A DNA stretch of 54,187 nt from an uncultured Candidatus Saccharibacteria bacterium (GTDB taxonomy: Bacteria > Patescibacteriota > SICC01): assembly GCA_964476895.1 (NCBI GenBank), contig CAYZCS010000002.1:1-54187 (forward strand). The letters are read 5' to 3'. Below, in pieces: positions 14,849 through 31,833 of this stretch. Numbering within the stretch: position 1 is the first letter of the stretch; every line of letters starts with the position of its first letter. The position numbers and the translations under genes were made by a program. The notes under the pieces are model-generated. The model saw only the letters and a program-made list of their open reading frames with translations, did not search any database and was not told the DNA's origin.

Positions 14849-14900
14849 AATCGCTTAACCATAACACAATATCTCTCGGAAGTCAAGGACCGGCGGGCTG

Positions 14901-15737
14901 TTAGGCGTGACGGGCGCCTCTGCGCGAGTCCCTGATCGCGAAGGCTAAATGTACCGGTGCTAGGGCGTAGGAAAGGATGCCCGGATACGAACGTCTTCCA
15001 AACACCGCCCGCAGACGGACGCGTAATTCCCGTGCCGCCGATAGCCGGACCTTTAGCGATCCCGCGCTCTGGTCCAGCAGTGACGTATGCCGGGAATCGA
15101 TTCGGTATAACTTTCCAGGCCTGGACATGATCTCAATCCGCCCCCGGAACGGCAGAGCTGCATGGAAGCACCAATCCTCGGCGTAGTTCAGCGCCGGAAA
15201 CCCGCGGACCCTTTTCGCCGCCTCAGTTCGGATCAACGCGCAGCCTGCCAAAGGAAACAAGTTGCGGGCAGCGTTCCATGCCGCGAACAAACGGGGACGC
15301 CGCTGTAAGCGCAGCGCATAAGCATATGGCCAACGCGACCGGCGACGGTGGCCGCTTCGCGGATTCCAGTTGACCATCCAGCTCGATACCGCGACCAGCT
15401 CGGGACTACGATCCAATTTCCGCCTCAACCGGCCCAATGCACCCGGCAACATGACGTCGTCCCCATCCATGAACAGGACATAGGGCGTCTTCGTCTTGCG
15501 CAGGCCCGCGTTCCGGGCTTCTCCGATCGTCATGCGGAACGGTGTCCGTACGACAGTGGTCCCAGAAAACGAAGGAAGGGGGTCGTCCGACGCATTGTCC
15601 ACGATAATGATCCGACTGGACTCGTCCTGGGCGCGAATACTGGCAACGGCCTCCCGAAGCGTACTGCCCAGGTTCCAGGCGGGTATCACGACGGTTACGT
15701 CCGCCCGCTTATCCGTTCGCGATCTTCCTGTAGACAT
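14901..15737 (-). CDS. family 2 glycosyltransferase
   Basis: VTVVIPAWN, IIIVDNASDD and FMDGDD (DxD) motifs. Confidence 0.85.
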   Translation of the reverse strand: MSTGRSRTDKRADVTVVIPAWNLGSTLREAVASIRAQDESSRIIIVDNASDDPLPSFSGTTVVRTPFRMTIGEARNAGLRKTKTPYVLFMDGDDVMLPGALGRLRRKLDRSPELVAVSSWMVNWNPRSGHRRRSRWPYAYALRLQRRPRLFAAWNAARNLFPLAGCALIRTEAAKRVRGFPALNYAEDWCFHAALPFRGRIEIMSRPGKLYRIDSRHTSLLDQSAGSLKVRLSAARELRVRLRAVFGRRSYPGILSYALAPVHLAFAIRDSRRGARHA

Positions 15738-16827
15738 CCTCGTATCCCTCGATCATCCGCTCTAGCGAGAACCTTTCCCGTACACGCCGATAACTCCGCT
15801 TCCGCATCTCCCGATACTCGACGTCCGGCAGGGCATAGATCCGCCGCACCGCCTCGAGGATACCCGCAAGACCAGCCTCCTTAACCTGCCAGTCGCCGCG
15901 GATGTCGTCCGTGGACGGATTCACCAGGAAGCCGGTCTTTCCGTCCTCGACGATCTCAGGGGCCGCGCCGCGGGCGAACGTGATGACGGGCGTTCCCGCC
16001 GCCATGCTTTCGATGAACGTCAGACCGAACGGCTCCTCCCACTGGATCGGCAGCAGGGCAGCCCGTGCATCCGCGTACTGGCCGGCCCACTGTTCACTGC
16101 CATGATTTAGTGGGCCGAGGAACCGGACCCCGTCCGACAGATGTGGCGTGATTTCCGAATCGATGAATCCCTTCCGGCCTACGCCGGAAATCCGAAGCGG
16201 TTTGCCAGCCGTGCGGACAACCTTAATCGCCTCGGCAACGCCCTTCTCTCTCACGAGCCGGCCGACGAAAACCAAATCTTCCGATCCTTTGCCGGGTTCG
16301 TTCGGGAAAAGGTCGAAACGGGTACCATTGTAAACGGTGGACACAAAGTTGAGATGAGGAAACGTGGTCCGCTGGTAACCGGAGATACTGACCAGCGGTT
16401 GCTCCCTAAAATATTCGAATATGCGTCGCTGCTGGCGTCGGAGGACGTTATGAACCGTCACGACCGTGGGTGTGTCGCTGAGCGCGGCCAAGGGCATCCC
16501 AAGGTATGCCGGCTCGGTATGGAGATGGATGACGTCGAATCCGTCGGCCCGCTTATACAGCTCGGTCAGATACAGCGTCTTCTCACCCATGCCGTCCTTC
16601 GAGTCCCACTCCTGACGAGACAGCCCGAAATCCAGATCACTCGGCGCGAGCCCAAGGTCCTCAATACGAGCCTTGGATTTCGATCCCTGCGGCGCGAACA
16701 ACGTGACCTCGTGTCCGCGACCGGTCAAACCGTCCGCCAACTCACCGGTCAGAGCCGCACTTGCGGCCACTACCTCCGGTTTCGGGGGGACTGTGGTGCG
16801 GTTGCTGGCAAAGAGCGCGATCCTCAT
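15709..16827 (-). CDS. family 4 (GT-B) glycosyltransferase
   Basis: MRIALFAS N-terminus and the C-terminal EEPFGLTFIESMAAGTPVI motif. Confidence 0.85.
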   Translation of the reverse strand: MRIALFASNRTTVPPKPEVVAASAALTGELADGLTGRGHEVTLFAPQGSKSKARIEDLGLAPSDLDFGLSRQEWDSKDGMGEKTLYLTELYKRADGFDVIHLHTEPAYLGMPLAALSDTPTVVTVHNVLRRQQRRIFEYFREQPLVSISGYQRTTFPHLNFVSTVYNGTRFDLFPNEPGKGSEDLVFVGRLVREKGVAEAIKVVRTAGKPLRISGVGRKGFIDSEITPHLSDGVRFLGPLNHGSEQWAGQYADARAALLPIQWEEPFGLTFIESMAAGTPVITFARGAAPEIVEDGKTGFLVNPSTDDIRGDWQVKEAGLAGILEAVRRIYALPDVEYREMRKRSYRRVRERFSLERMIEGYEDVYRKIANG

Positions 16828-18125
16828 GCTCGCAACGATGAATACAGGTCCCTGAACTGTTCGCTGATTTCTTCCCAGGCGTAGTGATTGCGTATCGTAC
16901 GTGCGGCGTTATCGGCCACCTTGGCCCGTTCCTTCCTGTTCTTGAGCAGGGTCTTGATCGTGTCCGCCAAGGCAGCCCTGTCGCCCGTATCCACTATGAA
17001 TCCGTTCAGTCCATCGACGATGATCTCACGACTGCCCGCGACCCTCGAGACGATCGGGGGCGTACCACAGGCCATCGCTTCGATGGTAGTAAGACCGAAC
17101 GGCTCATACCGGCCGGCCAGTACAAAAACCGCGGCCTGCCGGTAGTACGAGGCTAGCTGTTTCCCGTGCGGAACATTCCCCAGAAACGTCACTTTCCGTT
17201 CAAGTCCGTGCTTTTTGATCAGCTGCTTAAGCTTCCGCTCGGTCAGTCGCTCCTCCTCACTTTGAAACTCGCCATGGACAGAGCCACCCATACAGAGGTG
17301 CCAGGGTGTCCGCTTGATCCGCATGGCCGCCTCGACGACACGGTCCAGCCCCTTGGCTGGAACCATCCGGCTCATCGTGAGAATCGCATTCGGTTGCAGC
17401 TTCATGCTCCGATCCAGCGTTTGTGGCCGTGGATTAAAGACGGAAGTATCAACACCGGGGTAGATCACATGAAGACGCTCGAAGTTGATGTCGTAATATT
17501 CCAATAACTGAATCCGGCTGGTTTCACTGAGCACCACCGTGGCGTCGGCCCGCCTGAGGATCCGCTGTTCGATCTGGTTGCGAACTTGGAACCGGTAGAT
17601 GGATCGCAGCCGGGCCGGCGACGCTCCTTCGGCGCGCATCTCTATGTTCTTCACTTTTCCGGATGAGTGCGGCGTATGGACATGCGGAATTTTCTGAGAA
17701 CGGGACAGGAGTATTCCTGCATAACCGCCATCCCAGTAGTGAGAATGGACCATGTCATAGCGGAGCCGTTTCCGGGCAATCCAGTCACGAATGCCTTTCA
17801 CTAGAACCGGGATGGATTCGTAGATCTTCTCCTTCGAAATGAATGCCGTACCCCCGGCTTCCACCCGGACAATACGCACACCCTTGCCGATATGCTCCTC
17901 AGCAGGGAGGTCGCCGATCTGCCGGGTAAAGATGTCTACTTTCACGTTAGCCTTGGCCAATGCCTTGGCAAGCTGCAAAACATAGATGGTTTGCCCACCG
18001 GTGTCGGTTCGGCCCAGCGGCGGAGAACTCTGCACGTACCCGTGTGGATGAAGCATCATCACCCGACGGACTGGCCTGACCCTGGGAACGGTTTTGGTTT
18101 TGACAGTCATAGCTTCGAGCTTCAT
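16824..18125 (-). CDS. sucrose-phosphate-synthase-like GT4 glycosyltransferase
   Basis: HPHGYVQSSPPLGRTDTGGQTIYV and YEPFGLTTIEAMACGTPPI motifs. The ATG at 18125 is chosen because the upstream 344 aa of the 778-aa track ORF are antisense to treT. Confidence 0.8.
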   Translation of the reverse strand: MKLEAMTVKTKTVPRVRPVRRVMMLHPHGYVQSSPPLGRTDTGGQTIYVLQLAKALAKANVKVDIFTRQIGDLPAEEHIGKGVRIVRVEAGGTAFISKEKIYESIPVLVKGIRDWIARKRLRYDMVHSHYWDGGYAGILLSRSQKIPHVHTPHSSGKVKNIEMRAEGASPARLRSIYRFQVRNQIEQRILRRADATVVLSETSRIQLLEYYDINFERLHVIYPGVDTSVFNPRPQTLDRSMKLQPNAILTMSRMVPAKGLDRVVEAAMRIKRTPWHLCMGGSVHGEFQSEEERLTERKLKQLIKKHGLERKVTFLGNVPHGKQLASYYRQAAVFVLAGRYEPFGLTTIEAMACGTPPIVSRVAGSREIIVDGLNGFIVDTGDRAALADTIKTLLKNRKERAKVADNAARTIRNHYAWEEISEQFRDLYSSLRA

Positions 18126-18293
18126 TCTACTCCGCGGAGCTGGAATCGGCACCAATGGTGCACTATGGTGTACTACACTTGAGGCTGATGACGGAGACAG
18201 ACACCGGAGCAAAACGGATGGTCGATCGCCACGAAGCAACGTTCCGCCGATTGGCCGGCGGACGATCGCGGAAAGCGGGCAGGAGCTGAGTTC

Positions 18294-19532
18294 ATGAAGA
18301 AAGTCACGGTCAATCCGATTTCCGCAGAAGCATATACGCGCATAGGGGCCGACATCGTTTCCACCGCCGACGGGACGGCGGTTTCGCTTAAGGGAAAACG
18401 CATCCTCCACGTGAACTCCACCGCCAATGGCGGCGGCGTGGCGGAGATCCTGCGGTCGGAGGTCCCGCTGATGCAGGATCTCGGCATCCGGGCCGAATGG
18501 CAGGTGATCGAGCCCGAACCCGACTTCTTCGAGATCACCAAGAAAATCCATAACGCCCTGCAGGGCGAGCAGGCCGACCTGACCGACGCGGAATGGGAAC
18601 GCTACGAGACGGCCAGCAAGCAGCTTGGCACGCAGCTTGATCCGACCGCCTGGGACGCCATCATCATCCACGACCCGCAGCCGGCCGCCATCCCGTTCTT
18701 CCACACCGACGCCGACGCGGCCGAGTGGATCTGGCGGTGTCATCTCGACAGCTCCAAGCCGCTCCCCGCGGCCCAACAACGGTTCGTCCGGTACCTGAGG
18801 CCCTACGCGGGCGGCATCTTCAGCCTGGAAAAGTTCCGGCTGCCCGGTTTCGCCCCGGACCACTCCGCGATCATCCCGCCCGCGATCGACCCGCTGACCG
18901 ATAAGAACCAGCCGATGACCGAAGCAGAAGCCCGGAAATTGGTCGGGCTGTGCCAAGTCGACCCCGACCGGCCGTTCATCATACAAGTCTCCCGCTTCGA
19001 CCAATGGAAGGATCCCCTGGGCGTGCTTGAGGCCTGGCGGCTCGCCAGGCAACAGGTGCCCGAACTCCAGCTCGTCCTGATCGGTGGGACGGCGGACGAT
19101 GATCCGCAGTCGCCGCGCATCCTCGCCCGGCTCCGTGAAGAAGCCAACGACCAGGACCATGGTCTCTGCATCCTCGCCGACACCGCCGACGACCGCACCG
19201 TGAAGGCGTTCCTGACCCTGGCCACGGTGGCGATCCAGAAATCCCTTCGTGAGGGATTCGGCCTCACCGTCACCGAGGCGCTCTGGGCCGGGACGCCGGT
19301 GATCGGCAGCAACGTCGGCGGCATCACGCTGCAGATCGAGAACGACGTGAACGGCTACTTGGTATCTACCGTCTCCGAGGCCGCGGAACGAATCGTCGAA
19401 CTCTGCCGCGATCCGAAGCGCGCCAAACGGTTCGGTGAAGCCGGTCGGGAGATCGTCCGGGAGAAGTTCCTGCTACCACGCCTGGTCGCCGACGACCTGA
19501 AGCTCATCGAGGCCGTGCTGAACGGCGCATGA
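18294..19532 (+). CDS. treT: trehalose synthase, TreT-like GT4 glycosyltransferase
   Basis: HVNSTANGGGVAEILRSEVPLMQDLGI...FFEITKKIHNALQG N-terminal signature as I recall it for TreT, plus SLREGFGLTVTEALWAGTPVI. Confidence 0.75.
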   Translation: MKKVTVNPISAEAYTRIGADIVSTADGTAVSLKGKRILHVNSTANGGGVAEILRSEVPLMQDLGIRAEWQVIEPEPDFFEITKKIHNALQGEQADLTDAEWERYETASKQLGTQLDPTAWDAIIIHDPQPAAIPFFHTDADAAEWIWRCHLDSSKPLPAAQQRFVRYLRPYAGGIFSLEKFRLPGFAPDHSAIIPPAIDPLTDKNQPMTEAEARKLVGLCQVDPDRPFIIQVSRFDQWKDPLGVLEAWRLARQQVPELQLVLIGGTADDDPQSPRILARLREEANDQDHGLCILADTADDRTVKAFLTLATVAIQKSLREGFGLTVTEALWAGTPVIGSNVGGITLQIENDVNGYLVSTVSEAAERIVELCRDPKRAKRFGEAGREIVREKFLLPRLVADDLKLIEAVLNGA

Positions 19533-21379: not shown

Positions 21380-22110
21380 GCGGCCGCTTCCCCGACCAAC
21401 GGCCCGACGAGCAGGTGCTGGCGATCGTGCGGCCGCACTGGCTGGTAATACTGCCCGCGATCCTCCTGACCGGCGCGCTCGGCCTGCTGCCGCCGTTCGT
21501 CGTCTGGGGCGTGAACGCCGTTGACCTCGGCGTGAACGGACCCGGGGCGGCCGTGGGAATCACGATTATCTCCGCCTTCTACCTGACGCTTGCGACCTAC
21601 TTCTACATCCGCTGGCTGGACTACTACCTCGACGTAGGCGTGGTCACCGACAAGCGCGTCGTGGACATAGACCAGCTCGGGCTCTTCCGCCGGAACGTGG
21701 ACGAGCTCGATCGCAAGGTGATCCAGGACGTGACCGTCTCCCGGCACGGGTTCCTGCAGACGATCTTCAACTTCGGGAACCTGGAGATCCAGACGGCCGG
21801 CGAGCGGCGGAACTTCGAGTTCCGCGGCATCCCGAACCCGGAGAAGGTCCAGCACCTGGTCGCGCGGGCACAGGACAAACGGGACGATGGGGGCGGCGGC
21901 GCGTCCGGCGGCTCAGGTACGGATTCGCAACCAGGCGGACCTGCCGCGTCGCAGAGCAAGCCTTCGCAGCACCACCGGCCGACGCAACAGCCGCATCCGA
22001 CGAAACCCCGACCGACCCCACACGGGCAGCAAGCTGCACAACCGGAACGTCCGGCTCCGCCGAAGCGTCCGGACCAATCCAGCCAGGGCCTGCCGCGGGA
22101 GTTCGAGTAA
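21376..22110 (+). CDS. bacterial PH-domain (YdbT/DUF304-like) membrane protein with a Pro/Gln-rich tail
   Basis: Two N-terminal TMs, then DKRVVDIDQLGLFRRNVDELDRKVIQDVTVSRHGFLQTIFNFGNLEIQTAG, typical of bPH_2 domains. Confidence 0.7.
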   Translation: MSGRFPDQRPDEQVLAIVRPHWLVILPAILLTGALGLLPPFVVWGVNAVDLGVNGPGAAVGITIISAFYLTLATYFYIRWLDYYLDVGVVTDKRVVDIDQLGLFRRNVDELDRKVIQDVTVSRHGFLQTIFNFGNLEIQTAGERRNFEFRGIPNPEKVQHLVARAQDKRDDGGGGASGGSGTDSQPGGPAASQSKPSQHHRPTQQPHPTKPRPTPHGQQAAQPERPAPPKRPDQSSQGLPREFE

Positions 22111-22177
22111 CGTTAATTCCACCATTGGCACTAGGTTTTGAGAACCGGCTTAGTTGCAGGTCATTCATGGGTCACTA
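22097..22177. repeat. two tandem, imperfect ~40-bp repeat units at the left edge of the island
   Basis: Unit a is GGGAGTTCGAGTAACGTTAATTCCACCATTGGCACTA (22097-22133). Unit b is GGTTTTGAGAACCGGCTTAGTTGCAGGTCATTCATGGGTCACTA (22134-22177). Both resemble the unit at 24071-24111. Confidence 0.35.
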
Positions 22178-22234
22178 AGCGTCGCATCGCTCCCGGAGGC
22201 AACGCGTCTTTCTCGAACCGCTCAAGCAGCGAAG

Positions 22235-22486
22235 TCAGGACAGGAGGCGCCTAGCCTCAGCTACGGCCTTATCGCAACAGCCGCCAAATTTAAATTGGTA
22301 CCCATCGGCAGTTTGGTCGACGCCTGTAACCCGTGGAGGTTTGTTGTGAACTGGGCAGCGCGCACTCTGGACCTTCTTGGTAACCCCTTCGATGGTCAAT
22401 CTCCGGACCTCACCTTCGAGGCCGTCTGTGAACTGGCGCTGACTCACTTTTCTACCCCCGATGCGATACTCGATTTTCACACTCAT
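22235..22486 (-). CDS. 83-aa Cys/His-containing hypothetical protein, partner of the nuclease-like ORF
   Basis: ATGA overlap with the upstream ORF. Contains CPVH...GGCCDK (possible metal site). No family recognised. Confidence 0.5.
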   Translation of the reverse strand: MSVKIEYRIGGRKVSQRQFTDGLEGEVRRLTIEGVTKKVQSARCPVHNKPPRVTGVDQTADGYQFKFGGCCDKAVAEARRLLS

Positions 22487-22851
22487 GAGATTACCGTAAG
22501 ATTGCGAGTGCTACCACCGGCCGTCTTGACCGCTTGACGAGCCGCGTCCGCCCACCCTTTCGGTACACAGAGGATGAATGGGCATGGAGCACCAGTCCCA
22601 GTCATAGAGCGGTTCGAAAAGTCACGAAATTGCTCCTGGGACGTTGCCGAGGTGAGGTCGCTCCCGATCTTGGCCTCGCCGATCAAGAGAACGCCTCCTT
22701 TCGTGCCCAGTGCATCGGGTTCATGTGCGCCAACGGCGTAGGGGTCGGGGTAATTGAGGCCACCGGCCGCGTTGGTTACTTCGACGCCTTGGCCTTTCAT
22801 GTATCCAACCAGGCCTGCGACTAATCGTTGATGTTCGGGTGTTTCAGCCAT
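22483..22851 (-). CDS. 122-aa minimal PD-(D/E)xK (restriction-endonuclease-fold)-like protein
   Basis: AAGGAG SD 6 nt upstream of the ATG. It shows an N-terminal helix with Glu (PEHQRLV), then HEPD, then 13 residues later LLIGEAK (D...ExK spacing). Confidence 0.6.
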   Translation of the reverse strand: MAETPEHQRLVAGLVGYMKGQGVEVTNAAGGLNYPDPYAVGAHEPDALGTKGGVLLIGEAKIGSDLTSATSQEQFRDFSNRSMTGTGAPCPFILCVPKGWADAARQAVKTAGGSTRNLTVIS

Positions 22852-22879
22852 ATAACTCCTTTCGGCTTAACTTTTCATT

Positions 22880-23293
22880 ATGCAAAATCCACTTTGCAAT
22901 CTAACTCCGGACTTGTCAACCGTTTCGATTAAGTTTTCAATTGGTGAAGTGGAGGATTACGCAGCACTTGGTAAACGGATACGGCAAGCCAGGGAAACAG
23001 CCGGCTTGCTCCAAACCGAGCTGGCCGAAAAGGTCGGCCTGGAGTCGGGTACTTCGATTTCGTTGATCGAGTCTGGATCTCGGAAGCCAAGCGTTGGCGC
23101 GCTTAACCGAATTGCTCAGGCAACAAAGACGGATGTCTCCTACCTAATAGGCGCTGACACGCCTAACGTCCGTGGAACACTCAGAGCCGAAGGTCTTTCA
23201 CTGAAAGATGTGGCGGTGATTGAAAACATCATCGAATTAATGAAGAAGGGAGACGATGGAGGCAACGCCTCCGGGCCGGCGCGCCGCCGCTAA
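22880..23293 (+). CDS. XRE-family HTH transcriptional regulator
   Basis: LGKRIRQARETAGLLQTELAEKVGLESGTSISLIESGSRKPSVGALNRIAQA is a canonical HTH_3/XRE domain. The true start may be the GTG at 22949 (MEDYAALGKRIR...). Confidence 0.8.
   Translation: MQNPLCNLTPDLSTVSIKFSIGEVEDYAALGKRIRQARETAGLLQTELAEKVGLESGTSISLIESGSRKPSVGALNRIAQATKTDVSYLIGADTPNVRGTLRAEGLSLKDVAVIENIIELMKKGDDGGNASGPARRR
22881..22898. promoter_or_regulatory. candidate operator palindrome TGCAAA-N6-TTTGCA in the divergent control region
   Basis: 6-bp perfect arms (22881-22886 and 22893-22898) between the nuclease-like ORF start (22851) and the likely XRE start (22949). TTGTCA/TTGACA -35-like boxes lie at 22913-22919. Confidence 0.3.
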
Positions 23294-23753
23294 GCTGGCG
23301 ACGAAGCTTCTGAGTGATTGCGGGCAGGCTCCCCCGGTCGTCCTGCGTGAGGTTTTTAAGCATGTGGCAGGAAAGATGCCAATAGCGGTAAAGCCAGTCG
23401 ACGGGTCAGAGCAGTTTGATGGAGTCCGTCTTACCAACGGGAACAAGATCGTAATTGCTTATAACAAGAACAAACCACCAACTCGCCAGCGCTTTACCCT
23501 GGCCCATGAGTTAGGGCACTGCCTCCTGGGGCACGGGGAACAAGGCAGCACACTAGATCTCTCAAGCAAAGAGCCAGAAGAGATCGAAGCCAATGCATTC
23601 GCAGCTGAGCTTTTGATCCCGCGGCGGGCCTTAGCTGAAGAGGTCGCCCAAAATGGGTTTGATCCCGAGACAACGGCGCGGCGCTACAAGGTGAGTGTCT
23701 CCGCACTTTGGTGGCGGCTTCGCGAGACAAACCTGATGATGAAGGTGCGCTAA
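23256..23753 (+). CDS. ImmA/IrrE family (COG2856) zinc metallopeptidase
   Basis: RFTLAHELGHCLLGH (HEXXH) followed by EANAFAAELLIPR. It overlaps the XRE gene by 38 nt. Confidence 0.8.
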   Translation: MEATPPGRRAAAKLATKLLSDCGQAPPVVLREVFKHVAGKMPIAVKPVDGSEQFDGVRLTNGNKIVIAYNKNKPPTRQRFTLAHELGHCLLGHGEQGSTLDLSSKEPEEIEANAFAAELLIPRRALAEEVAQNGFDPETTARRYKVSVSALWWRLRETNLMMKVR

Positions 23754-23791
23754 CGATTCCTTGAATTGCCTCTCTCTGGGATAGTTGGTAG

Positions 23792-24016
23792 GTGAAGGAT
23801 GCTTCTCAGCGAGGGATGGCTGCGGCGAAGAAAGACGGAATGCCCCGGCAGGCGCGATCTGGCGGGCGGGCGCTCGATGTATGGGCAGTGCCGCGTGAGA
23901 AACCGGATATGGATCGGTTCGTGGCGGTGCTGGTGACGCTGGCGCTAAGGCGCGTAGAGAAGGAGCAGGCAGCGAAGCAGGCTGGGCCAGAAGGAAGCGG
24001 GAGCAAGCGATCCTAG
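23792..24016 (+). CDS. 74-aa hypothetical protein (uncertain)
   Basis: GTG-initiated ORF, basic N-terminus, one helix-like segment DRFVAVLVTLALRRVEKE. No family recognised; it could be a gene remnant. Confidence 0.3.
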   Translation: MKDASQRGMAAAKKDGMPRQARSGGRALDVWAVPREKPDMDRFVAVLVTLALRRVEKEQAAKQAGPEGSGSKRS

Positions 24017-24070
24017 GCATTGGAGCCGTAGAGGCGACGATGGAGCTCAGCGAGAGACCTCCGGATCTTC

Positions 24071-24111
24071 GGGTTTGAGAACTGCCCAGTTAGCTCCACC
24101 GATTGGTACTA
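24071..24111. repeat. third copy of the ~40-bp repeat unit
   Basis: GGGTTTGAGAACTGCCCAGTTAGCTCCACCGATTGGTACTA. It shares the exact 9-mer TTTGAGAAC with unit b, and TCCACC / ATTGG / ACTA in the same order with unit a. Confidence 0.35.
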
Positions 24112-24204
24112 AATTTCTAGAATCTCTTTCTTGCGTATTTTTAACGGTAAACAGCTGCTACCCTAGTTGGTTAGGAATGGTTTCCCACGCTTTGTCTAGA
24201 AAAT

Positions 24205-24927
24205 TTATATAATCTTCCCCATCACCACCGCTCTCGCCCGGCAGTGCGCATGGTCATACCCCATGCCTCGTACCTCTTCCCACGATGCTTCATACCAACG
24301 GTTGCCTCCGTCATGCTTGAGGTAATACACCTCAGAGAATGGAATCTTTCCCCGCTCTAGCAGTCGATCAAGATACATGTTGTAGCCGAGCGGCACCGTG
24401 AGGAAGATTTCACCACCAGACGCCAAAAGTGAACGAAGGTGTGTGATTACCCGTGGAATCTTTTGTGAATCCCGTTGCTCAAGGTTTGGCCGAGTGTCGT
24501 TGGTCATCGCGATACTGTCCCAGCCGATGTGCTCAATGGTAGAGATACTAATGATCAAGTCATACGGCTCCTCCGCCATGAAATCAAGAATGTCATGGTT
24601 GATTACACGCGGCCCCGGCTCGTACTTATCCACCACATCATGGCGATGACCGCGGCGGAAGTAGTATGGAGTGACGTTCCCCACCTCAAGGATTCGCTGA
24701 CCGCGGTAGCGGCGGAGTATCTCCCGAGCTAACGGCAATTCCACCTGCCGCTCGTTTAGCCAGGTGGAGTTGTATGAATGGCGGATGTAACGGTACCGTT
24801 TCTCGCCAAGTCGGAAGTACTGCGGTACGTACCGTTGTGGAGCAACAGCTACTTGGTGCTTTAGCTGCCGAAGGGCATCCAGCACATCCATACAATCAAG
24901 GCTAGCAAATGATAGTAATAGTATCAA
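24205..24927 (-). CDS. class I SAM-dependent methyltransferase-like protein (degenerate motif I)
   Basis: RILEVGNV...DLIISISTIEHIG...GGEIFLTVP resembles Methyltransf_11/23-type folds, but the Gly-rich GxGxG is absent. The start may be the ATG at 24891. Confidence 0.5.
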   Translation of the reverse strand: MILLLSFASLDCMDVLDALRQLKHQVAVAPQRYVPQYFRLGEKRYRYIRHSYNSTWLNERQVELPLAREILRRYRGQRILEVGNVTPYYFRRGHRHDVVDKYEPGPRVINHDILDFMAEEPYDLIISISTIEHIGWDSIAMTNDTRPNLEQRDSQKIPRVITHLRSLLASGGEIFLTVPLGYNMYLDRLLERGKIPFSEVYYLKHDGGNRWYEASWEEVRGMGYDHAHCRARAVVMGKII

Positions 24928-24949
24928 ATGTTAGTCATAGGCTTGCGGT

Positions 24950-25177
24950 ATGGTTACTACCGCAGAAGCACGGTTTCTCAATAGCGTCAGCAAGCGGATC
25001 GCAGAGAAGCGAAAGGCAATAGGATACTCTCAGCTCAGACTTGCTAAAGAGAGCGGCCTGACAGAACGGCACATCGGTCATATCGAGCAGGGTCGTCGGA
25101 GACCCACACTCTTAACTCTCTATCGCCTCGCACGGGGACTCGACGTGGACGTTTCAGAACTATTAAAGGAACTATAG
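24950..25177 (+). CDS. small XRE-family HTH regulator (75 aa)
   Basis: KRIAEKRKAIGYSQLRLAKESGLTERHIGHIEQGRRRPTLLTLYRLARGL is a canonical HTH_3. It is divergent from the methyltransferase-like gene. Confidence 0.75.
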   Translation: MVTTAEARFLNSVSKRIAEKRKAIGYSQLRLAKESGLTERHIGHIEQGRRRPTLLTLYRLARGLDVDVSELLKEL

Positions 25178-25262
25178 GCAAGCAGCCCCTAGCAACGCAA
25201 CTAAATCTCCCTGTTGCTTTATAATTCACACAAGCAATCTACCATAAGGCCAGCAGGCCGTC

Positions 25263-29074: not shown

Positions 29075-29647
29075 ATGCAAAAACCGACCATCCTCTATGA
29101 CCTGTCCGCGATCGTGCACGATGACCTCGCCGCCGAAGCGGGAACTATCGCCGAAACGCTGGAGCGTTCGGAGGATGACGTGATCGCCGCGGTCGCCGAA
29201 TCGAAACCGGCCTACGACCGCGGAGAGATCACCCAGAGCGAGCACTGGGGTCAGGTCGCGCTCAAGTTGGCCCTTGAGGAAATCGACACGTTGTCCATGT
29301 TCGCGATCAACGGCGCGGAGGTGGAGCAATCGGTGCTCGGACGGATTCGCGTGCAATCGCCGACGCACGTGCTCGGCCTGGTCTCCGACGCCACGCCGGA
29401 TTTCGTGGGTCATTTCCGGAAACGCTACCAGCTCGACGAGCTGCTGCACGTACATGTGATCGGCTCGGAGCTCGACGAAAACCGCGACTATCCGGGCCTG
29501 CTCAAGCTGTCAGCGGAGCGGCTCCAGCACCCGCGGGAGGGGCTGCCGTTCGTGGATATCAAGCCGGTGCACCTGGAAACCGCCAAGGGTCTCGGCATGC
29601 GGCCGTTCGACGTCCGGGAGCATCCCGGGGTGTTCCCCGGTCATTGA
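29075..29647 (+). CDS. HAD-superfamily-like hydrolase, motif I degenerate
   Basis: ILYDLSAIV replaces the DxDxT/V nucleophile motif. The later VSDATP and VDIKPVHLETAKGLGM segments fit HAD motifs II-IV. Confidence 0.5.
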   Translation: MQKPTILYDLSAIVHDDLAAEAGTIAETLERSEDDVIAAVAESKPAYDRGEITQSEHWGQVALKLALEEIDTLSMFAINGAEVEQSVLGRIRVQSPTHVLGLVSDATPDFVGHFRKRYQLDELLHVHVIGSELDENRDYPGLLKLSAERLQHPREGLPFVDIKPVHLETAKGLGMRPFDVREHPGVFPGH

Positions 29648-29672
29648 ACTTGTTCCAAAGCCGGCGAAACGC

Positions 29673-30911
29673 TCATCGTCCTTTGGCTGCTTTCAGGAGC
29701 AGCTTCGGGAGCGAGCTACCCATCTTCAGGCGGCGCACGTCGAACGTGCGGGTGCGAACGTTCTCTTTCCCTTGGATCAGGTCTGCCAACGTTATGCCGG
29801 ATACGGTGCCGTTGGTAAGCCCCCACTTCATGAAGGCCGTCGCCACGTAGAGACACTTCGATCCCGGGAGGAGCTTGCCAATCAACGGCATGTTGTCTAT
29901 CGAGAGGTAGTCCCAGGTGTTCCAGCGGTATTCGACCGGACCGGCGTTGAGCCGCTCCCGGGCATAGCCCGCCAGCCGCCGGTACCGCCGGTTAGCGGTG
30001 CCGCCGCCGAAGTACGGCACGTGGCTTTCGCCACCGACCAGGAGCAGGTCGGTGCCGTCCACGGTAACCGGCAGGATGGAGCGCAGCGGTCCGTCGTAGG
30101 TGATGTACATACCGCGCAGGCCGTTGCTCGGTTTGGTCGCCACGACGTAGGATTGCAGCGGATATTCGATCGTGCAGTAGAGTCCGCGGCTTGCCGGTTG
30201 GAACGGCACGTTCGTGGCCATGATCACGTGTGGAGCGGTAACCGTGCCGTCTGCCGTCTCGACCCGGCACGGCTTTCCGTCTTTGATGCCGCTCACCTTG
30301 ACCTTGCTTCGCTCGAAGATCCGACCGCCATTGCCCTGGACGGCCTCTGCCAATCCGAGCAAGTACTTACGGGAGTGGAACTTGGCCTGACCGGTGAATC
30401 GAACGGCGCCTTGGACGGAAAACGGCAGCGGCGTCTCGACCGTGAATTCGGCCGGCAGTCCCAGCTCCCTGGCGGTCCGGGCCTCCGCTTTGAAAGCCGC
30501 GACCCGGTCGGCCCGTTCCGTAAAGACATAATTGTCATCACGCTGCCAGTCGCAGTCGATGCCCTCCTGCGTGATGATACCTTCGATCTCACCGATCGCG
30601 GTTTGGTTCGCCTCGGCATAGGTCCGCGCGGCCTCCCTGCCGACGTCACGCGCGAGACGGTCGTACGCGAGGCCATGCTGGGACGTGACCTTGCCGGTGG
30701 TGTGGCCGGTAACGCCCGAACCGATCGTGCCCTTCTCCAGCACCGCCACCGTCAATCCGGCACGCTTCAGGAAGTAGGCCGCGGTCAGACCGACGATTCC
30801 GCCGCCGATAATCACCACATCGGCATGCGTATCGCCGGCCAGGGCCGGATAGCCGGGACTGGCCATGCTGTCCGTCCAGTACGAAACGTCCTTGCCGAGC
30901 GGTACCGCCAT
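29673..30911 (-). CDS. FAD-dependent oxidoreductase (DAO family)
   Basis: ADVVIIGGGIVGLTAAYFLKRAGLTVAVLEK dinucleotide-binding motif; 412 aa. Confidence 0.85.
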   Translation of the reverse strand: MAVPLGKDVSYWTDSMASPGYPALAGDTHADVVIIGGGIVGLTAAYFLKRAGLTVAVLEKGTIGSGVTGHTTGKVTSQHGLAYDRLARDVGREAARTYAEANQTAIGEIEGIITQEGIDCDWQRDDNYVFTERADRVAAFKAEARTARELGLPAEFTVETPLPFSVQGAVRFTGQAKFHSRKYLLGLAEAVQGNGGRIFERSKVKVSGIKDGKPCRVETADGTVTAPHVIMATNVPFQPASRGLYCTIEYPLQSYVVATKPSNGLRGMYITYDGPLRSILPVTVDGTDLLLVGGESHVPYFGGGTANRRYRRLAGYARERLNAGPVEYRWNTWDYLSIDNMPLIGKLLPGSKCLYVATAFMKWGLTNGTVSGITLADLIQGKENVRTRTFDVRRLKMGSSLPKLLLKAAKGR

Positions 30912-31051
30912 CGTGGGAAGAGTGTACCGATGTCTCCCGTGTCGTCAATGGAAAGCTGCCTACTAAAACTAACTGTACAAACGAATTAAGGCGGATAGAT
31001 ACAGCGGTGATGTGTACACAGGCCGAGCCGCCGCAACGAATCTATCGCTTG

Positions 31052-31252
31052 TCAGTCTAAATCCGTAGGTGTAAGCGGTTCGATTCCCCGCTCTCTCATT
31101 GCCGCATTTCTGCGTTGCTCGGCTGCTAGAATCTCAGCCTGCCTCTCGGCATCAAGCCCTTCAAACCACTCCCGATTCTCCGGGAAAATTACTGCCTCGG
31201 CTTCACCAACCTCGATTTTTTTGGAATCTGACATAACGAAGTAGATTATCAC
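31052..31252 (-). CDS. small acidic hypothetical protein (about 60 aa)
   Basis: Likely start MSDSKK at 31234. The C-terminal RGIEPLTPTDLD is encoded antisense to a tRNA-T-arm-like fragment, so the ORF may be partly fortuitous. Confidence 0.3.
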   Translation of the reverse strand: MIIYFVMSDSKKIEVGEAEAVIFPENREWFEGLDAERQAEILAAEQRRNAAMRERGIEPLTPTDLD

Positions 31253-31438
31253 ATGTTAGACATCGAGAAAAACGCACTATGAACAAATCCTAGCTGCTCG
31301 TATCTAGCCAATGAAAAGCGGTTTCAATCTGATCGATCAACCGAGGGATGGTGCGGGAGATGCAGGGTGATTATGACGTGGTGTCAAAATACGCGTAGCC
31401 TGCAGAGCTCCCGGCTTATCCGTCACAACCATCCGTGT

Positions 31439-31672
31439 TTACTCCAGCCAGCCGAGGTCCTTCAGGGCCTGACACTCCGTGCAAAGCTCCTTCGGAGGAC
31501 TGGTGTAGTTCTCGGGAAGCCTGTCGGACTGGTGTCCGCAGCTGATGCAGTAGAAGTGCATCGGGGAACCGGCTGGGAGTTGGCTATCGTTGATCTGCTC
31601 TGGCTTGTTCGCGCGCCGCTCGGCAAGTGCCTGTAAGGCGGCTTCGCGACCATCGGTGGTGGCAAGTGCCAT
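31439..31672 (-). CDS. 77-aa zinc-ribbon-like hypothetical protein
   Basis: AAAGGAG SD before the ATG. Contains CISCG...CTEC (CxxC...CxxC). Confidence 0.55.
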   Translation of the reverse strand: MALATTDGREAALQALAERRANKPEQINDSQLPAGSPMHFYCISCGHQSDRLPENYTSPPKELCTECQALKDLGWLE

Positions 31673-31760
31673 GATGTATCTCCTTTGGTTGTGACGGGTC
31701 GATCGACCAGATTGTGAAAGAACTCAAAATACTACTACGATTGAGGTCTTTATCCAACGG

Positions 31761-31833
31761 TGCCCCGGGAGGGTCTCGAACCCCCGACACATGGGTTAAA
31801 AGCCCACTGCTCTGCCAACTGAGCTACCGGGGC
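31761..31833 (-). tRNA. tRNA-Lys (anticodon UUU)
   Basis: Hand-folded 73-nt cloverleaf: acceptor GCCCCGG/CCGGGGC, D arm GCTC-AGTTGGCA-GAGC, anticodon arm GTGGG-CTTTTAA-CCCAT, T arm GGGGG-TTCGAGA-CCCTC, discriminator A. CCA is not fully encoded. Confidence 0.9.

Follow-up and report, generated by a model that had tools for sequence, protein, structure and literature searches.

An XRE-M78 regulatory pair divergent from a PD-(D/E)xK-like gene in a foreign island of a Candidatus Saccharibacteria contig

The DNA analysed here, called the window in what follows, comprises positions 1 to 54,187 of contig CAYZCS010000002.1 (assembly GCA_964476895.1) of an uncultured Candidatus Saccharibacteria bacterium, and our subject is a group of four open reading frames (ORFs) that form two divergent operons within an island of foreign DNA (Table 1). 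On one strand a putative nuclease gene, encoding a protein of 122 amino acids (aa), is followed by an ORF of 83 aa; on the other, a gene for a repressor of the XRE type is followed by one for a zinc metallopeptidase of the M78 family. A preliminary description made from the sequence alone had seen in this arrangement a compact inducible nuclease system, and comparison with the ORF list and the raw sequence shows the four ORFs, their motifs and both gene overlaps to lie exactly where it had placed them. The 122-aa ORF reads PEHQRLV, HEPD and LLIGEAK and is preceded by the Shine-Dalgarno (SD) sequence AAGGAG (22861 to 22856), 4 nucleotides (nt) ahead of its ATG; the 83-aa ORF reads CPVH...GGCCDK; and the XRE and M78 ORFs share 38 nt. 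We propose, with moderate confidence, that a portable XRE/M78 switch of the ImmR-ImmA/CapH-CapP kind has here been joined to a nuclease gene and represses the divergent operon until the repressor is cleaved.

Table 1. Features of the island and their positions in the window
Feature	Coordinates	Strand	Remarks
Foreign island, 3,114 bp	22111-25224		Holds all features listed; delimited by blastn against the syntenic locus L054
Orphan ORF, 83 aa	22235-22486	minus	ATGA overlap with the stop codon of the 122-aa gene
Putative nuclease-effector gene, 122 aa	22483-22851	minus	Uncharacterised PD-(D/E)xK-like family
Divergent control region	22852-22948		36% G+C
Inverted repeat TGCAAA-N6-TTTGCA	22881-22898		Candidate operator; overlaps the putative -10 of the cargo operon
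XRE repressor gene	ORF open 22880-23293, likely 22949-23293	plus	Pfam HTH_31, HTH_3
M78 (ImmA/IrrE-type) zinc metallopeptidase gene, 165 aa	23256-23753	plus	Peptidase domain only
Weakly methyltransferase-like gene, 228 aa (240 aa from TTG 24927)	24205-24891	minus	Pfam/PADLOC
XRE2, second XRE gene, 75 aa	24950-25177	plus	C-protein-like

The assignment of the plus-strand genes to an XRE regulator and an ImmA/IrrE-type protease, which had been made by eye, is borne out by Pfam, by PADLOC, whose best models are capH and capP, and by sequence matches in the PDB. The XRE protein matches HTH_31 (2.4e-11) and HTH_3 (4.8e-11) in Pfam and is covered in its full length by the capH profile of PADLOC (1.3e-13, positions 5-102 of 103). 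The peptidase matches Peptidase_M78 (PF06114) at 4.1e-24, with 85.2 bits against a cut-off of 22, and carries both the HExxH and the E-A-N-x-F-A motif of the M78 (ImmA/IrrE, COG2856) family, in the form of HELGH at residues 84-88 and EANAF at 111, which are kept in four homologues. Its match to capP (4.5e-27) comprises only positions 5-152 of the 242 in the profile, and its sequence matches in the PDB, IrrE (301 aa) and CapP (291 aa), are aligned within roughly their first 180 residues, that is, in their peptidase domains. CapP and IrrE combine a peptidase domain with a central helix-turn-helix (HTH)-like linker and a GAF domain, and single-stranded DNA (ssDNA) binds in a groove between the domains of CapP (bioRxiv 10.1101/2022.04.27.489752 for CapP). 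The GAF domain was proposed as a sensing module by the authors who described CapP and IrrE. CapP is defined, besides, by its activation through ssDNA or DNA damage and by cleavage of its partner repressor. The three-domain architecture of CapP (M78, HTH-like linker, C-terminal GAF) is not found in the 165-aa peptidase, which, because part of the ssDNA-binding and GAF apparatus is absent, is strictly speaking no member of the CapP family and resembles the short ImmA type rather than CapP or IrrE. With 165 aa it also has the size of an ImmA protein.

In the XRE protein, an L-R-(A/S)-(E/D) motif which is conserved in all five XRE sequences compared lies just after the HTH and contributes L78-R79 in the window (numbering of the 114-aa form). 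The mapped cleavage bonds are F82/R83 in CapH and L106/R107 in DdrO (PMC6868357 for DdrO), and by analogy of position we infer that L78-R79 is a candidate scissile bond. Repressors of the CapH/DdrO/ImmR type combine an N-terminal XRE HTH domain with a C-terminal oligomerisation domain in which the protease cuts; the window protein shows the HTH, the full-length capH match and the L-R motif after the HTH, and its dimerisation and cleavage are predicted.

The arrangement of the pair opposite a cargo operon recurs in its relatives. The four nearest relatives of the M78 peptidase (39-48% identity) occur in four distinct contexts, represented by seven loci (L014-L020), of which L016 is too short to show neighbours. 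At the other loci the XRE and M78 genes overlap by 11-32 nt, and the cargo operon, which is divergent, begins 90-374 bp from the XRE start. The cargo differs with each context: DUF3892 with a 308-aa protein and a serine recombinase in the first, DUF2188 with DUF6996/6997 beside DNA methylases in the second, DUF2188 beside a restriction-modification/Vsr cluster in the third, and a 216-aa protein with Lactamase_B and DUF2188 in the fourth. The published description of CapH/CapP-like pairs places them upstream of defence cargo which varies, DUF2188 and DUF3892 being among it, and on the strand opposite to it (bioRxiv 10.1101/2022.04.27.489752), and a regulator pair upstream of and opposite in strand to its cargo operon is what we find both in the window and in L014, L015, L017/18 and L019/20. 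Divergent control of the cargo operon by the XRE-protease pair, as originally suggested, therefore fits its closest relatives, which share the layout and carry different cargoes. The accompanying remark that the locus is not a named four-gene system needs to be divided: the layout and the regulatory principle have been published as CapH/CapP-like, whereas the cargo itself is undescribed.

The locus is most readily compared with CapH/CapP (Lau et al., bioRxiv 10.1101/2022.04.27.489752). The two have in common the order of XRE and M78 genes opposite a variable cargo, the best PADLOC matches, nearest relatives that face DUF2188/DUF3892 cargoes, and a hydrophobic-Arg motif near the position of CapH F82/R83. 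They differ in that the window peptidase, at 165 aa, has no C-terminal GAF domain and hence lacks part of the ssDNA groove, and in that the window cargo is not a CBASS, DISARM, DUF2188/3892 or ubiquitin-like system. DdrO/IrrE of Deinococcus (PMC6868357) belong to the same two protein families, IrrE being one of the PDB matches, and are cleaved at an L/R bond. Unlike the window peptidase, IrrE has a GAF domain. IrrE is, moreover, encoded apart from ddrO and governs a dispersed repair regulon rather than one adjacent operon.

The extent of the control region depends on the start of the XRE gene. The N-termini of XRE homologues align with GTG 22949, the ATG of L014 aligns with the same codon, and the G+C content of positions 22880-22948 is only 38%. 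The start is likely to be GTG 22949 (114 aa), that at ATG 22880 being uncertain, and for this reason a control region of 97 bp (22852-22948) is more likely than one of 28 bp. Within it a TTGTCAA block (22913-22919) is invariant across the window, L014 and L019, and TTCAAT (22936-22941), common to the window and L014, follows 17 nt later and 7 nt before the aligned start codons; read by hand, the two would make up the promoter of a leaderless XRE mRNA. Likewise identified by hand is CATAAT (22882 to 22877, minus strand), a candidate -10 element ahead of the SD sequence of the 122-aa gene.

Part of what is new at the locus lies in its cargo. No family of Pfam, NCBIfam, PADLOC or PHROG matches the 122-aa protein; a match to Dodecin (18.2 bits, below the cut-off) was confined to residues 97-121 and disregarded. 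A word-indexed search returned 15 homologues at 61-70% identity, all of them hypothetical, and an exhaustive profile search 291 representative clusters at E <=1e-3. The members are mostly 105-150 aa long, and some form the C-terminal domain of proteins of 320-400 aa, the N-terminal domains of which have no Pfam match and are unrelated either to the 83-aa protein or to the 90-aa partner discussed below. An AlphaFold2 model built on the 15-sequence alignment (predicted local distance difference test, pLDDT, 94.7; predicted template-modelling score, pTM, 0.88) displays the order alpha-beta-beta-beta-alpha-beta-alpha-beta, with a helix at 5-20, strands at 24-28, 47-51 and 54-60, a helix at 69-79, a strand at 92-95, a helix at 101-110 and a strand at 118-121. 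The predicted topology is that of the PD-(D/E)xK core, alpha-beta-beta-beta-alpha-beta, with one extra alpha-beta unit. When the model is compared with known structures by Foldseek (top probabilities 0.84-1.0 with E of at least 0.002; overall E 0.002-0.4 and template-modelling (TM) scores of 0.35-0.59), the matches in the PDB are almost entirely PD-(D/E)xK enzymes (best E 0.016, TM 0.35-0.53): the endonuclease domain of the R2 element, Cdn1/Can2, Hjc of three archaea, NucS, arenavirus cap-snatching endonucleases, RecU and several restriction or nicking enzymes. In the viral library BFVD they are VRR-NUC, DUF2726 and endonuclease I proteins (best E 0.002).

The residues expected of such a fold are in place. 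The acidic residue at strand 2 is D46, just before the strand at 47-51, and the (D/E)-x-K motif of strand 3 is provided by E59 and K61 at the end of the strand at 54-60. Among 90 diverse representatives of the family P45 is present in 88, D46 in 89, G58 in 78, E59 in 77, K61 in 69 (with Glu in a further 15) and H7 in 83. D46, E59 and K61 are invariant in the 15 close homologues, E3 and H7 in a 16-sequence alignment of intermediate range, and the window protein shares the residues that do not vary among the 14 other sequences of alignment A1. On the grounds of the model, the Foldseek matches and the conservation of the D, E and K residues in the 90 representatives, the original reading of this protein as a PD-(D/E)xK nuclease holds at the level of fold class, and we regard it as quite probable that the protein adopts the PD-(D/E)xK fold and that its catalytic-type motif is intact.

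Among characterised proteins its nearest counterparts are Hjc and other minimal PD-(D/E)xK nucleases (Mrr/VRR-NUC/NucS), with which it shares a length of about 120-140 aa, the alpha-beta-beta-beta-alpha-beta core and the PD...E-x-K spacing. Hjc/ST1444 heads a profile search of PDB sequences (E 0.23-1), PD and E-x-K being aligned without gaps at the same 13-residue spacing, and Hjc is found by Foldseek at E of about 0.05 and TM 0.37-0.43. Hjc, however, differs in several respects: the sequence similarity is non-significant, the TM scores are 0.35-0.5, and the family of the 122-aa protein occurs in mobile and defence islands rather than with recombination genes. Moreover, the catalytic residues of Hjc include a single Glu in helix 1, whereas the 122-aa family conserves in this helix mainly His7 (83 of 90), along with Glu3. 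We have not filed the 122-aa protein as a member of the Hjc family, and to judge from its sequence it fits no named family.

Where does this family normally reside? Most close homologues (about 58-70% identity) belong to metagenome-assembled genomes (MAGs) of Solirubrobacterales or to soil metagenomes, and close homologues sit in integrase-bounded islands rich in toxin-antitoxin genes (PIN/PhdYeFM, RelA_SpoT, Fic, NTP_transf_2). At nine distinct loci with upstream sequence a gene of about 90 aa lies directly upstream of the nuclease gene, often adjacent to or overlapping it, and in a tenth contig, for which the annotation only was used, the 90-aa gene abuts the nuclease gene. Records with the 90-aa gene upstream are L001, L002, L005-L009, L011, L022-L025, L027 and L031. 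In 7 sequences of the 90-aa protein (MSxFDGAVVxEQGV...IPWQRYTL) 42 positions are invariant, and neither a Pfam match nor a PDB relative was found for this protein. The 90-aa and 122-aa-type genes look like an undescribed two-gene module of toxin-antitoxin-rich integrative islands in Solirubrobacterales. In one recurring context (L003/L004/L010) a 58-aa DUF1508 gene precedes the nuclease gene instead, and a homologue of 59% identity is followed by a gene for a TIR_2 protein. A conserved 534-aa protein with weak similarity to ORC/CDC6-like AAA proteins is encoded convergently with the nuclease homologue in two Solirubrobacterales-type islands (L001, 6387-7991; L005, 6426-8030), in both cases between the nuclease module and the integrase.

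Distant members of the family (29-47% identity) adjoin large genes. These encode an SNF2 helicase whose match is to the helicase portion of ZorD and DpdE (ZorD 2.7e-61) and which is accompanied by an upstream protein of about 340 aa, an 824-aa LmuB-like SMC ATPase (1.5e-28), a type IIG restriction-methylase (4e-271) together with a ClpP-like SDH protease, and a NYN protein. Three of the distant members (L035, L039, L044) themselves matched nothing in PADLOC at E up to 0.001, nor did any known-defence model of PADLOC-DB v2 match the 122-aa or the 83-aa protein at E up to 1, and neither the phage collection nor viral contigs yielded a member of the nuclease family. In ZorD and DpdE an Mrr-like nuclease is fused to an SNF2 helicase, and the distant members that lie upstream of, and overlap, an SNF2 gene resemble a split version of this arrangement; the window, in contrast, has no helicase, and its nuclease has an orphan partner only. 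The gene trio, composed of the protein of about 340 aa (weak PD-Lambda-5_A), a distant family member and an SNF2 helicase of about 480 aa, is present at L044, L046/L047 and L052 and looks like an undescribed defence-type operon. L050 and L053 show its first two genes and then the end of the contig, and a Bradyrhizobium plasmid (L021, NZ_CP064694.1) has the trio cluster too, with the upstream gene not compared, beside radical SAM, ATPase and DGQHR-domain genes.

The second gene of the cargo operon is of a different nature. The source record annotates the 83-aa ORF as a gene, and its G+C content by codon position resembles that of its island neighbours. It matches no family model of Pfam, NCBIfam, PADLOC or PHROG; phmmer and tblastn searches against all fetched proteins and loci gave nothing; and no gene like it was found downstream of the family homologues at related loci. 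That it is a diverged form of the 90-aa partner was considered and rejected (hhalign probability 0.1%). Of the AlphaFold2 models made from the single sequence the best reaches a pLDDT of 89, the other four 50-74, and the best one has no meaningful match among PDB folds. The 83-aa protein is thus an orphan, possibly a real one. Two small genes that recur as a pair, as in type II toxin-antitoxin systems, are not what we see for the 122-aa and 83-aa genes, and the former assumption that they form a conserved pair has to be given up: the 83-aa protein has no homologue, and the recurrent partner of the family is the upstream gene of about 90 aa or the DUF1508 gene.

A number of these and further observations weigh against control of the nuclease gene by the XRE/M78 switch. 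A profile made from 90 M78 homologues and run on 45 other loci encoding the nuclease family, with a reach of 4-6 kb, detected an M78 gene at none of them (0 of 45), so that the pairing in the window is unique; conversely, the nuclease family occurs in none of the M78 relatives examined (L014-L020). The usual upstream partner of about 90 aa is absent from the window, and the nuclease gene could thus be an orphaned half-module, while the 83-aa protein found no homologue but itself in 5.8 billion clusters, which leaves a functional pair unsupported. The peptidase is without the GAF domain of CapP and IrrE. The fold matches of the 122-aa protein lie below significance (best E 0.002-0.016), and so does its sequence match to Hjc (E 0.23-1). 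Finally, a scan of the control region for the sigma-70 consensus found no promoter, and arms of 6 bp or longer arise in 22% of shuffles of the 97-bp region. At this chance level the palindrome, which is only partly conserved in L014, was rejected as a significant operator; of the control region of about 30-100 bp with a palindrome that had been pictured at the outset, the palindrome is present, but its arms are no better than chance.

Could the two operons then simply be neighbours that work independently of each other within a patchwork island? The XRE-M78 pair would be a self-contained stress or toxin-antitoxin-like module autoregulating nothing but itself, and the 122-aa gene the orphaned second half of a module in which a 90-aa gene normally precedes it, with its own promoter, silent or decaying. 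The absence from the window of the 90-aa gene that the nine close-homologue loci carry would be accounted for in this way, as would the fact that at the 45 other loci the nuclease family is never beside an M78 gene, and there is a proposal that pairs of XRE and COG2856 genes act as toxin-antitoxin-like modules in their own right (PMC2701414). On the other hand, a divergent cargo operon accompanies each of the close M78 relatives, as the published rule would have it; the 122-aa ORF is intact, with a strong SD sequence and its invariant residues kept; and with 97 bp between the start codons the two promoters must physically overlap. We therefore regard independent neighbours as rather unlikely, albeit as the explanation to be taken most seriously beside a switch that controls the nuclease operon. 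What can no longer be upheld is the notion of a conserved four-gene system: with no M78 gene at any of the 45 family loci and with small genes that are not conserved neighbours, an outcome which had been named in advance as telling against the proposal, the combination in the window, a known regulatory cassette with a new cargo, is a one-off, and the nuclease normally travels with another partner.

RuvA and RuvB of the window cluster at 90% identity with proteins of a MAG designated 'Patescibacteria group bacterium', and in blastn a syntenic locus (L054, GCA_040902515.1) has 89-92% nucleotide identity to the window. This homology stops at window position 22110, the exact stop codon of the bPH_2 gene, and restarts at 25225. 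The equivalent interval of L054 (12003-14212) measures 2,210 bp, compared with 3,114 bp in the window, and encodes a split ComEC (Lactamase_B and DUF4131/Competence); no ComEC homologue was found anywhere in the 54-kb window. At the island site of the window strain foreign DNA has taken the place of the DNA-uptake gene comEC. The G+C content between about 22.1 and 25.2 kb is 50-58%, compared with 65-70% on both sides, and that at third codon positions is 0.51-0.62 in the island genes versus 0.85-0.92 in ruvB, the bPH_2 gene and the S8/SpoIID gene. Given this foreign codon composition throughout and a single replacement relative to a genome of about 90% identity, the island is one acquisition unit, and its foreign origin is established computationally. 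The flanks are made up of housekeeping genes: ruvA, ruvB, the bPH_2 gene, glycosyltransferases, an S8/SpoIID protease and a DAO oxidoreductase. A scan of the island with Rfam for non-coding RNA returned nothing at E up to 1, and no convincing direct repeats that might serve as attachment sites flank it.

Against this background the cassette might be regarded as what is left of the immunity region of a prophage or integrative element, in which an ImmR/ImmA-type pair once ran excision or lytic genes and unrelated cargo has remained. With ImmR/ImmA of ICEBs1 and with phage repressor/anti-repressor pairs the window indeed shares a short single-domain M78 peptidase and an XRE protein as its expected substrate. 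Phage homologues of the window peptidase stand at a similar distance (33-38% identity) and some are annotated as antirepressors, the GAF-less peptidase is of ImmA size, and close homologues of the nuclease are found in integrase-bounded elements. However, neither the 3.1-kb island nor about 8 kb on each side of it contains an integrase, a recombinase or a phage gene for structure or replication, and in or near the island there are no excisionase or conjugation genes such as would accompany ImmR/ImmA; in place of an excision or lytic operon, a nuclease-like gene and an orphan diverge from the pair. In addition, the island DNA matches no record in the phage and plasmid collections, and the nuclease family, as mentioned, has no viral relative. 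An origin as a prophage was rejected on these grounds, and a remnant of an immunity region is in our opinion improbable.

The remainder of the island holds a second divergent pair. The methyltransferase-like protein, which in the source record has the 228-aa form, matches Methyltransf_23, a generic class I family, below the cut-off (4.6e-4) and mad2 of PADLOC (7e-6). XRE2 matches HTH_3 in Pfam (1.4e-14) and Control_protein (9.5e-9) and capH (4.2e-10) in PADLOC, and in sequence it appears to resemble the controller (C) protein of restriction-modification systems. The sole sigma-70-like promoter found in the island lies on the minus strand (24938 to 24909), upstream of the 228-aa start. The presence within 3.1 kb of a PD-(D/E)xK-like gene, a weakly methyltransferase-like gene and a C-protein-like HTH gene invites the thought of a restriction-modification-like unit, in which the 122-aa protein would be the endonuclease, the 228-aa protein the methyltransferase and XRE2 the controller; one distant family member does adjoin a type IIG restriction-methylase. 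Yet a solid DNA methyltransferase linked to an endonuclease, as in a type II restriction-modification system with a C protein, is not found: the Methyltransf_23 match is both sub-threshold and generic, and no motif of the DPPY/NPPY type was seen when the translation was read. Furthermore, none of the loci with a member of the nuclease family encodes the 228-aa protein, plasmids gave no match to it, and its gene lies 1.4 kb from the 122-aa gene with the XRE-M78 pair between them. With a methyltransferase below threshold, no co-occurrence with the nuclease family and no plasmid homologue, we rejected the island as a restriction-modification unit, a reading which we consider highly improbable.

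Between the M78 gene and the methyltransferase-like gene about 450 bp (23754-24204) carry no gene on record. Their G+C content is 58-61%, their GC skew is strongly positive (+0.21 to +0.24), and a 74-aa ORF within them (23792-24016) is without homologue or family match. In the relatives L015 and L017 the M78 gene is succeeded by more genes on its own strand, and for this reason the segment may be a decayed gene. Elsewhere in the window two more segments differ from L054 and are strain-variable: 14869-18386, which is part of the glycosyltransferase cluster, and 29640-31760, which carries the DAO-family oxidoreductase gene and adjoins tRNA-Lys (31759-31833).

How would the switch work on the nuclease operon? 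Judging by the layout and the homologues, a dimer of the XRE protein would bind the 97-bp AT-rich region and repress the nuclease operon and probably its own promoter. Upon a cue from stress or infection, the co-translated M78 peptidase would, by analogy with the characterised pairs, cut the repressor after its HTH, L78-R79 being the candidate site; having no GAF domain, the peptidase resembles the short ImmA type rather than CapP or IrrE. Derepression would then lead to synthesis of the 122-aa nuclease and of the 83-aa orphan, which may be an inhibitor, an adaptor or nothing of relevance. Because catalytic-type residues are conserved and the family has neighbourhoods of the defence and toxin-antitoxin type, we infer that the nuclease would cut the DNA of the invader or of the cell and so bring about abortive-infection defence, addiction or growth arrest.

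A bolder interpretation takes the whole family of the 122-aa protein, with its 291 clusters, as widespread and undescribed minimal nuclease effectors which serve in many defence and addiction contexts by means of swappable small partners, namely the 90-aa protein, the DUF1508 protein or the orphan 83-aa protein, and in the company of large neighbours such as the SNF2 helicase, the SMC ATPase, TIR and NYN proteins. Here such an effector would have come under a GAF-less switch that senses a cue other than ssDNA, in a cassette that replaced comEC. We think that this is unlikely to hold in its entirety.

What is new at this locus is an undescribed minimal PD-(D/E)xK cargo family together with an orphan, and a short, GAF-less form of the peptidase. 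The value of the finding is limited in that the four-gene arrangement is a single instance and the reading of it purely computational. Nevertheless, a cassette of the CapH/CapP or ImmR/ImmA kind is a helpful pointer to cargo that is toxic or defensive, and a GAF-less peptidase in a CapH/CapP-like layout raises the question of what triggers such short switches. That the host belongs to a small-genome Patescibacteria lineage and that the cassette occupies the comEC site of a close relative adds to the interest. If the switch does control the 122-aa gene, this would mark a PD-(D/E)xK family that is as yet uncharacterised as one of small effector nucleases.

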